From Candidatus Poribacteria bacterium (lineage in GTDB: Bacteria > Poribacteria > WGA-4E > UBA9662), in NCBI GenBank assembly GCA_036339735.1, contig JAYZAL010000011.1, forward strand, positions 10,157 through 74,156: DNA of 64,000 nucleotides, given 5' to 3'. Within the stretch, counting starts at the first letter, position 1; every line of letters starts with the position of its first letter. The position numbers were made by a program, and so were the translations under genes. The notes under the pieces were generated by a model, which saw only the letters and a program-made list of their open reading frames with translations, did no database searches and was not told the DNA's origin. Shown one piece after another: positions 36,512 through 37,477 of this stretch.

Positions 36512-37477
36512 CTATCTTTGTGAGCTAAAAAAATCAACCAAATCAGTTCCGTGTGTTTTGGTGTTCAATTGTTTTTCGATTTTCAAAATTCTCCCCTGCA
36601 TATCAATGTATACAGCCATTCGTTCGCTAGTCCTACTAGACGCTTCGTCTGCTGCCCCAAATAACAAGCTCAGATTCCTATCCACATCAACCAACAGTGG
36701 AAAATTAAGTCCATCACGGTCAACAAAGCGCCTGTGTGATTCGGCATCCTGCACCGAAACACCAAACACTTGGATCTCCAAATCATTAATTTGACTCATC
36801 TCATCCCGGAGAGAGCAAACCTGCGCCGTTCAGCCAGGAGTCATATCCATAGGATAAAAAGACAAAACCACATTTCGCTTATTTCTAAAATCCCTGAGCC
36901 GGTAACCTTTACCATTTTCATCGTAAGCTACGAAATCAGGAGCTAGGTGGCCAACATTTATCTCATAGCTAGTCATGGACTGGATTGTTTCCAGTACTTC
37001 TGTTCCATGTTGTGGAATATTGACATTGTTATTGATAGAGCGAACATACCCAGCTCTATCAACAACAAAGGTAGTCCGACTCGACTTTTGTTTGTCAGCT
37101 GATATACTGGAATATAATCGAGACACAACCAAATCATTATCAGATAGAAGAGGAAACCCAAATCGATATTGCTCCTGAAATTCATAATGAGATTCTTGAC
37201 TATCACCACTAATACCGTAAACCATGGTTCCTGTTGCTTCAATTTTTGTCAACTCGTCACGGAGAGACTCGAGTTCAGAAGTTCAACCACCAGTAAAATC
37301 TTTAGGGTAAAAAGCTAACACCACGTTCCGTTTTCCCCAGTGCTGGCTGAGGCTCTGTTTGTTACCAGACCCGTCCTTTAATTGAAAATCAGGCGCAACC
37401 ATTCCAACGACAACTTCTCCTCCCGCTGTGGGGGAAAGAAGTGTATCTCGTCTCTGAGTAACCATCTCTTCTGTCAT
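36512..37477 (-). CDS. Tandem two-domain BCP/PrxQ-type peroxiredoxin with two in-frame UGA codons (predicted double selenoprotein, 321 aa)
   Basis: Track ORFs 37283-37630, 36830-37252 and 36512-36799 are one frame separated only by TGA at 37283-37285 and 36830-36832. It reads FYPKDFTGG-U-TSELESLRDE and FYPMDMTPG-U-TAQVCSLRDE, i.e. PxxxTxxC with U at the peroxidatic Cys. The conserved Arg is present in both domains (SRTTFVVD, ERMAVYID). ATG 37477 follows AAGGAG. Confidence 0.88.
36800..36814 (-). promoter_or_regulatory. Candidate SECIS-like hairpin for UGA #2
   Basis: TCTCTCCGGGATGAG begins 15 nt after the UGA, is 13/15 identical to element #1, and folds as UCUC-UC[CGG]GA-U-GAGA. Confidence 0.55.
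37253..37267 (-). promoter_or_regulatory. Candidate SECIS-like hairpin for UGA #1
   Basis: TCTCTCCGTGACGAG begins 15 nt after the UGA. It folds as CUC-UC[CGU]GA-C-GAG; an alternative AACUC/GAGUU + GUC/GAC stem is also possible. Confidence 0.55.

Follow-up and report, generated by a model that had tools for sequence, protein, structure and literature searches.

A tandem peroxiredoxin gene of Candidatus Poribacteria with UGA-encoded selenocysteine predicted at both peroxidatic sites

Introduction

The window analyzed here is a 64,000-nucleotide stretch of contig JAYZAL010000011.1 (positions 10,157 to 74,156, forward strand) in the Candidatus Poribacteria bacterium assembly GCA_036339735.1, which comprises 4.32 Mb in 107 contigs and is 92% complete. 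Between window positions 36512 and 37477, the minus strand carries a peroxiredoxin (Prx) reading frame interrupted by two TGA codons, raising the question of whether the locus is a decayed gene or encodes a single enzyme in which both codons are decoded as selenocysteine (Sec, U). A previous reading of the window, made from the sequence only, proposed a single 321-aa fused two-domain Prx needing two Sec insertions. This proposal is supported by conservation, by selection on the coding sequence, by hairpins past the UGA codons and by the presence of selA, selB and selD in this genome. Judged on sequence comparisons, the locus is interpreted, with a probability of roughly 90%, as a conserved gene for a tandem peroxiredoxin with UGA-encoded Sec at both peroxidatic sites.

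Reading Frame and Gene Organization

When both TGA codons are read through, the minus-strand frame at 36512-37477 spans 321 codons plus a TAG stop, with the TGA triplets at codons 65 and 216 as its sole interruptions. Re-reading of the coordinates agrees with the sequence-only reading, which had described one continuous frame from ATG 37477, preceded by an AAGGAG ribosome binding site, to TAG 36512; an identical AAGGAG lies ahead of the internal ATG in the same-genus genome G001. Codon 65 is located in the motif FYPKDFTGGUTSE and codon 216 in FYPMDMTPGUTAQVC, placing both at the peroxidatic position. These motifs, together with the Pfam domains described below, bear out the claim that each TGA falls exactly on the peroxidatic Cys of PxxxTxxC in one of two BCP/PrxQ domains. 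Under translation table 11 the frame is broken into three open reading frames (ORFs), 37283..37630, 36830..37252 and 36512..36799, which is the fragmentation by standard gene callers that had been anticipated. The features of the frame are as follows:

36512..37477, minus strand: whole coding sequence (CDS) of the predicted tandem BCP/PrxQ-BCP/PrxQ peroxiredoxin, both TGA codons read as Sec (orthologs; purifying selection in all three segments)
37484..37489, minus strand: Shine-Dalgarno-like AAGGAG with a 6-nt spacer to ATG 37477 (direct read)
37477-37475, minus strand: start ATG (direct read)
37283..37285, minus strand: UGA 1, predicted Sec65, peroxidatic residue of domain 1 (PKDFTGGU); TGA in 35/35 orthologs
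36830..36832, minus strand: UGA 2, predicted Sec216, peroxidatic residue of domain 2 (PMDMTPGU); TGA in 35/35 orthologs and 5/5 single-domain genes
36514-36512, minus strand: stop TAG (direct read)

Conservation of the TGA Codons and Selection on the Coding Sequence

A six-frame search through stop codons identified a co-linear match over both domains with exactly two TGA codons in 35 of 41 related genomes, representing four families. Phylum-wide, 147 of 176 genomes have a full-length co-linear match (E below 1e-70) and 147 of the 148 matches carry exactly two TGA codons. All 147 genomes with a match belong to families f1 to f4 of one order of Poribacteria, and the tandem gene was found in none of 17 genomes from the other seven families in the phylum. 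In the extracted DNA, both TGA codons fall on the same motif column in 35/35 two-domain loci, as does the TGA of five single-domain relatives from genus g6. Scanning species-representative genomes with a sequence pattern gave 80 loci, each labelled Candidatus Poribacteria or from an unlabelled metagenome-assembled genome, with TGA at both sites in every one (72 parsed first and the other 8). No Cys form at either site was seen in the 35 extracted and 80 pattern-scan loci, and neither TAA nor TAG occupies the two UGA sites in any locus inspected, homologues with such stops being one outcome that would have told against the sequence-only reading. That both TGA codons recur in 35/35 orthologs and 80/80 loci agrees with its argument that coincidental nonsense mutations at both catalytic codons are very unlikely. 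Its expectation that homologues keep TGA at both positions, with conservation past them, was likewise borne out by the through-stop search, the extracted loci, the phylum search and the substitution rates that follow.

Ratios of nonsynonymous to synonymous substitution rates (dN/dS) were calculated by the Nei-Gojobori method for 12 ortholog pairs, some of them saturated, in the three segments delimited by the UGA codons. The ratios are 0.03-0.51 ahead of UGA 1, 0.05-0.17 between the UGAs and 0.03-0.17 past UGA 2; when the gene of this genome is compared with that of the same-genus genome G002, segments 2 and 3 give a ratio of 0.15. Values below 1 past each UGA suggest that the downstream sequence is protein-coding and constrained. 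Degraded sequence downstream of the UGAs, also named beforehand as a sign of decay, was found in neither downstream segment, dN/dS being well below 1 in both.

These data bear directly on the alternative of a decayed gene, or of three small ORFs independent of each other, in which the TGA codons are nonsense mutations and no full-length product is made. Decay would be consistent with the three ORFs obtained under table 11, with an additional TAA in G001 and with the lack of a detectable tRNA-Sec in this assembly. However, both TGA codons lie at the same catalytic columns in 35/35 and 80/80 loci from four families, dN/dS is well below 1 past both, no further stop lies between the two sites in the 72 parsed loci apart from the one TAA of G001, and the downstream pieces are without an N-terminal half of the fold of their own. 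On these comparative data the decay explanation looks refuted, and it is given next to no weight here.

Public databases contain full-length predictions of the tandem protein (P0002-P0019, none from NCBI) that show Trp at both sites in the 17 of 18 that were aligned, indicating that a TGA=W code was used to predict them; they are therefore not Cys forms. The closest Cys-containing two-domain protein, P0036, is a distant homolog with 29% identity that has Cys at the U216 column and a CxxC thioredoxin-like first domain. One genome (G094) has a second copy (locus L144, G094:C108:2900-4800). This paralog lacks a signal peptide, and its domain 1 is catalytically dead (Sec replaced by Ser, TCA, with the motif Thr and Arg lost), with Sec-x4-Cys retained in domain 2; the same form is represented by database proteins P0022, P0023 and P0027, which end at the TGA. 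Three further database proteins from unbinned metagenome contigs, P0004, P0009 and P0020, have a degenerate domain 2 active site (…LGGTTQGYSPW… instead of …PGUTAQVCSLR…); the domain 1 TGA, printed as W, is kept in P0004 and P0009, and P0020 is without that part.

SECIS-Like Hairpins Past Each UGA

The nucleotides past the UGA codons are near-invariant at both sites despite the six-fold degeneracy of Ser, Leu and Arg codons. Codons +5 to +13 past both TGA codons (14 usable columns) have a normalised codon entropy of 0.223, compared with 0.803 elsewhere in the gene (144 columns), and 0 of 20000 random permutation sets reached a synonymous entropy this low. The lowest 9-codon entropy windows of the whole gene are those past UGA 2, ranking first, and past UGA 1, ranking second. 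Frozen codons include Leu as CTC in 34/34 and 35/35 sequences and Ser as TCG in 28/28, and at site A, past UGA 1, they are Ser71, Leu72, Arg73, Leu76 and Ser77. This synonymous freezing is the strongest single number for a selenocysteine insertion sequence (SECIS). The two hairpin regions are located as follows:

37247..37275, minus strand: site A SECIS-like hairpin region, past UGA 1; consensus register at alignment columns 17-39
36788..36821, minus strand: site B SECIS-like hairpin, past UGA 2; stem of 8 bp that includes a single bulged base and is capped by a CGGGAU loop, 13 nt past the UGA

The hairpin sequence, GCUCGCUC-CGGGAU-GAG-U-CGAGC, starts 13 nt past the UGA. At site B, 97.0% of cells in 40 sequences are paired in the 8-bp structure versus 26-40% with slid partners, and RNAalifold gives 8 pairs with 0 broken in the 40 sequences, one pair exchanging among G-U (29), A-U (7) and U-A (4). 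The site B hairpin of this genome is good, at -11 kcal/mol. At site A, 80.7% of cells in 35 sequences are paired in the consensus register, and family f2 pairs in a shifted register, 7 bp around an 11-nt loop, whose pairing, double changes and covariation were each reached by 0/500 shuffles. The selD gene of this genome serves as an internal control, its UGA being followed by a hairpin with a CGGGC loop at a matching distance of ~11 nt. Rfam scans returned nothing at the gathering threshold in the window and nothing at E below 1 in the selA, selB and selD loci.

Selenocysteine Machinery and Decoding of UGA

The genome encodes SelB (362 bits), SelA (579 bits) and SelD (359 bits), all above curated cut-offs. 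The selA and selB genes have no internal stops, and selD (locus L009, C70:27515-28441) is itself a selenoprotein gene, with an in-frame TGA in SCAGUASKLD. Of the 1838 open stretches in this genome that reach 300 codons or more, 404 (22%) end in TGA, which is thus an ordinary stop. The density of TGA inside frames bounded by TAA and TAG was also considered and set aside as an uninformative measure. Of the selABCD set that the sequence-only reading had looked to, selA, selB and selD are present, and selC, the tRNA-Sec gene, is missing from this assembly and present in 5/5 relatives.

It could be argued that the gene is real and its UGA codons are not read as Sec: they might be decoded as Trp or Cys through readthrough by near-cognate tRNAs or a lineage-specific code, or UGA 1 might act mainly as a regulated stop, with full-length product rare. 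Serial decoding of two UGA codons is expected to be inefficient, public gene callers used TGA=W for these genes, and the Sec reading itself rests on sequence. Yet 22% of the long open stretches of this genome end in TGA, selA and selB are free of internal stops, and the TGA codons of the tandem gene occur only on the catalytic Cys column, each with a conserved hairpin at SECIS distance past it. In addition, selA, selB and selD are present, selD being of the UGA type, and a peroxidatic Trp would kill the enzyme, yet the active-site residues are invariant. Non-Sec decoding is considered very unlikely on this evidence.

Two more Prx-like or thioredoxin-fold genes with one TGA each are found in this genome, at C37:13075-13500 on the minus strand and C87:70976-71362 on the plus strand, with the active-site TGA motifs FFPKADTPGUTKQAC and RGKLUPVCAP, respectively. 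Relatives contain dozens of such one-TGA matches, so the clade looks rich in selenoproteins.

Evidence Against the Interpretation and Expression Data

Several observations weigh against a tandem protein with two Sec residues. The first is the failure to find a tRNA-Sec in this assembly, which is 92% complete: ARAGORN identified 34 tRNAs, none of them SeC, the best match to RF01852 in the assembly (45.2 bits versus a cut-off of 47) is a tRNA-Ser, and BLAST with a same-genus tRNA-Sec gene and its upstream flank gave no match. A crude tRNA-Sec pattern scan of the genome produced one match, judged by inspection not to be tRNA-Sec. In the five relatives tested, both same-genus genomes included, tRNA-Sec was detected in all at 68-77 bits, and ARAGORN types the same-genus copies (G001 and G002) as SeC(tca). 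The tRNA-Sec loci of three draft relatives (L060, L061 and L062, in G001, G002 and G004) lie a few hundred bases at most from a contig end, which suggests that this region tends to assemble poorly. Taken with the 92% completeness, these positions make an assembly gap the most economical account of the missing tRNA-Sec, one that is likely rather than proven.

The hairpins themselves supply further such points. True covariation is thin at site B, where 5 of 8 pairs are invariant and the score is matched by 126/500 shuffles, so the case for SECIS elements rests mainly on synonymous-site conservation. Site A is weak in this genome: it can form 6 of the 8 consensus pairs, or else an alternative 8-bp fold of -6.4 kcal/mol. 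The minimum free energies of the 63-nt post-UGA sequences of the window are no better than those of shuffles (z +0.72 and +0.63), a null result that makes single-sequence folding uninformative here. An outer helix at site B (columns 6-14 with 40-48), seen in individual folds, is not supported by pair counts and was dropped, with 80.7% paired versus 79.8% in shuffles and a covariation score reached by 237/500 shuffles.

Two points concern the orthologs. The gene of G001 has an extra stop, a TAA in place of CAA at the codon corresponding to Gln94, indicating that the gene can decay or be mis-assembled. All 11 extracted orthologs of family f2 have Gly where the domain 2 PxxxTxxU motif should have Thr (FYPRDFGRGU). 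The f2 orthologs (e.g., L042-L052) keep Sec, Cys and Arg in domain 2, giving an active site that is unusual for a peroxiredoxin.

Marine metatranscriptome studies, 15 in number, contain near-identical sequence in 20 RNA-library runs, and contigs from four studies cover the gene, however these contigs may include DNA carry-over and cannot show transcript ends. UGA 1 is bridged by single contigs X1 record 4, X3 record 7 and X6 record 19, and UGA 2 by X1 record 3 and X4 record 8; no alternative letter at either TGA occurs in the bridging contigs.

Protein Domains and Proposed Mechanism

For Pfam, Protein Data Bank (PDB) sequence and Foldseek matches, Cys was substituted for Sec. Pfam identifies two AhpC-TSA stretches, at residues 24-147 and about 175-306 (E 1.3e-63; PF00578, 213 bits versus a cut-off of 26), and the protein passes the cut-off of the BCP model PRK09437 (thioredoxin-dependent thiol peroxidase, BCP) with 173 bits versus 140. 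It falls outside the PrxU model NF040737 (98 bits versus a cut-off of 270), and no NCBIfam model fits the full length. The domain features are as follows:

37037..37408, minus strand: peroxiredoxin domain 1, residues 24-147 (Pfam; invariant P58, T62, U65, R134)
36560..36955, minus strand: peroxiredoxin domain 2, residues 175-306 (Pfam, BCP model; invariant P209, U216, C221, R286)
36815..36817, minus strand: Cys221 of U-x4-C, 5 residues past Sec216 (invariant in 34/34 orthologs)

The listed residues of both domains are invariant across the 34/34 aligned orthologs, R134 and R286 among them, consistent with the earlier statement that each domain continues past its TGA with the catalytic Arg. A CP-x4-CR arrangement is typical of BCP/PrxQ enzymes such as E. 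coli BCP and PrxQ, and by analogy Cys221 probably acts as the resolving residue in domain 2. In this genome, domain 1 has Glu at U+5 and no resolving Cys, Cys being found at U+5 in some lineages only (e.g., L043); domain 2 has Sec-x4-Cys in every case. T213 is present in the domain 2 motif of this genome. An AlphaFold2 model built from the ortholog alignment has a pLDDT of 86.3 and a pTM of 0.86, with disorder limited to residues 1-19. In Foldseek each domain matches Bcp1 (3drn), AhpE (1xvw) and other peroxiredoxins with TMt 0.84-0.90, and Bcp1 3drn is the best PDB match by both sequence and fold. No solved chain spanning both domains was found among the PDB sequence and fold matches.

The protein would thus consist of two BCP/PrxQ-type domains joined by a short linker, with Sec inserted from UGA at each peroxidatic residue. 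Each UGA would be served by its own bacterial-type SECIS ~13 nt downstream, inside the CDS, allowing SelB and Sec-tRNA(Sec) to decode both codons in a single ribosome pass. In domain 2, attack on peroxide would probably be followed by formation of an intramolecular selenenylsulfide, which a thiol-disulfide reductant may then reduce. Domain 1 in this genome, without a resolving Cys, may operate as a 1-Sec peroxidase.

A more far-reaching possibility, regarded as doubtful, is an obligate two-selenium cell-envelope enzyme in which the Sec domains form an intramolecular pseudo-dimer relay, the Sec-x4-Cys of domain 2 recycling the 1-Sec site of domain 1. Were this so, symbiotic and pelagic Poribacteria would gain a peroxide trap independent of cytoplasmic thioredoxin, and the order-wide lack of Cys forms would mean that sulfur cannot substitute, which would be unusual among bacterial selenoprotein families.

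Origin by Tandem Duplication

In a maximum-likelihood tree of the separated domains, the 34 domain 1 sequences fall on one side and the 34 domain 2 sequences with five g6 genes on the other, with 100/100 support, and both halves repeat the family structure. This split and the repeated family structure indicate a single duplication ahead of the radiation of the order, in which the SECIS was copied too. One ancient tandem duplication is, on this phylogeny, the predicted source of both domains, each with its own SECIS; it would have copied hairpin and active site together before one Candidatus Poribacteria order diversified. The closed g6 genomes G009, G012, G018 and G024 (loci L053-L057) have no tandem gene and carry one or two single-domain Sec-PrxQ genes, which represent either the pre-fusion form or a domain 2 remnant.

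Comparison With Known Selenoproteins and Peroxiredoxins

The tandem protein resembles BCP/PrxQ enzymes (E. coli BCP, Sulfolobus Bcp1 3drn and Xanthomonas BCP 5iiz) in its AhpC-TSA domains and in passing the BCP cut-off, and the five-residue spacing between peroxidatic and resolving residues is retained in domain 2. It differs from them in having two domains per chain, predicted Sec in place of Cys at both sites, a signal peptide in most orthologs, and a domain 1 without a resolving Cys. PrxU of Eubacterium acidaminophilum (NF040737; reference 83 of a 2026 review, PMC13188914) is likewise a bacterial Prx with Sec at the peroxidatic PxxxTxxU position, however it has a single domain and a single Sec where the tandem protein would have two of each.

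The table of the same review lists Prx with one Sec, many Prx-like selenoproteins being known, and includes several bacterial proteins with two or three Sec, making multi-Sec bacterial proteins an established category (PMC13188914). The double and triple selenoproteins of NCBIfam (e.g., MbdU, the HUGP/GUXX-star fusion and arsenite methyltransferase fusions) have in common with the tandem Prx more than one UGA-encoded Sec, often through domain fusion; judged by their names in that table, they are fusions of unlike domains or closely spaced Sec pairs, whereas in the tandem Prx a whole Sec enzyme domain appears to have been duplicated along with its SECIS (PMC13188914). Cell-envelope peroxiredoxins that receive electrons through DsbD/ScsB-type transporters (PMC3322552) share with the leader-bearing orthologs a likely need for non-thioredoxin electrons outside the cytoplasm, however they are single-domain Cys enzymes and no such transporter is linked to the gene here.

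No tandem Prx-Prx selenoprotein or Sec-type PrxQ/BCP fusion was found in the literature searched, supplements aside, which may list families. Nor was a poribacterial selenoproteome found, hydrogenases being the only poribacterial selenoproteins mentioned, once, in the available text of PMC13582414. The architecture had been called unusual from the sequence, and this holds insofar as no tandem Prx-Prx selenoprotein is on record; proteins with more than one Sec, by contrast, are already known in bacteria from the table cited above (PMC13188914).

If read as proposed, the gene is a clean example, conserved across many genomes, of one bacterial mRNA that came to have two SECIS-directed Sec insertions through duplication of a Sec domain and its SECIS, and the conserved hairpin offers a ready SECIS model for finding more poribacterial selenoproteins. 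With no Cys variants seen in 147 genomes, the family may be a good system in which to ask what Sec offers beyond Cys. Annotation pipelines either fragment the gene, as in the three table 11 ORFs, or mistranslate it, as metagenome callers do with Trp at both sites, so poribacterial antioxidant capacity and selenium dependence are likely under-counted. Poribacteria include marine sponge symbionts, and the signal peptides of the family point to a selenium-based peroxide defence in the cell envelope that could be relevant to life in animal hosts or on marine particles.

N-Terminus and Predicted Location

Signal peptides were judged by a simple hydrophobicity rule in the 80 pattern-scan orthologs; in at least 69 of them a canonical start leads into a strongly hydrophobic stretch, and many leaders end in Ala-x-Ala-like sites, e.g., LALA/ENE. 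With a cleavable-looking signal peptide in most members, action in the cell envelope is expected, and the signal-peptide-bearing orthologs would act there. In this window a canonical start with a signal peptide is lacking, and the product of ATG 37477 has no leader. Two features lie upstream:

37511..37555, minus strand: in-frame remnant of the family signal peptide, KYALLVTFFLSTSEA (alignment with G001 and G004)
37628..37630, minus strand: GTG, the sole canonical upstream in-frame start, overlapping the last part of the upstream Zn-ribbon ORF; translation from it would extend the protein by a 51-residue leader (ORF 37283..37630)

At the position of the remnant, G001 and G004 have an ATG and a hydrophobic leader. 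The ancestral ATG codon is AAG at 37553-37555 in this genome, and the same AAG and KYALLVTFFLSTSEA are found in G002, leaving the location of the protein uncertain; translation in this genome and in G002 most likely, if uncertainly, starts at ATG 37477 to give a cytoplasmic form. A conserved Met occurs shortly past the predicted leader end in f3, f4, G001 and G004 (…AKETQM…, …SEGELM…, …KEFKM…), with AAGGAG ahead of it in G001, and could be a second start giving a leaderless isoform.

The altered start raises the possibility that the family is a genuine double-selenoprotein family of which this genome is in the course of losing its copy, the export signal already being gone and possibly selC as well. 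The AAG codon, the leftover leader without a canonical start close by, the weakened site A hairpin and the failure to find selC in the assembly are in keeping with such a loss. However, the CDS is intact, its segments 2 and 3 give a dN/dS of 0.15 against G002, the ATG is present with a strong AAGGAG ahead of it, and selA, selB and Sec-type selD are retained. Near-identical sequence also occurs in the 20 RNA-library runs from 15 studies, and selC is present in both same-genus genomes. Loss in progress is accordingly considered highly improbable.

Genomic Neighborhood

The genes flanking the tandem Prx gene differ between families, and no conserved reductant partner was found among them. In the window the neighbors encode a Zn-ribbon protein, a DUF4340 protein, a GNAT protein and GlnRS, and in other families they include shikimate genes, PhyH, a scramblase and a diacylglycerol kinase. 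The Zn-ribbon protein (PF09723) is encoded by a 99-aa ORF immediately upstream on the same strand (37611-37910, minus), and the RNA-library contig X1 record 4 extends from within the peroxiredoxin gene into this ORF, to the edge of the compared stretch (37700).

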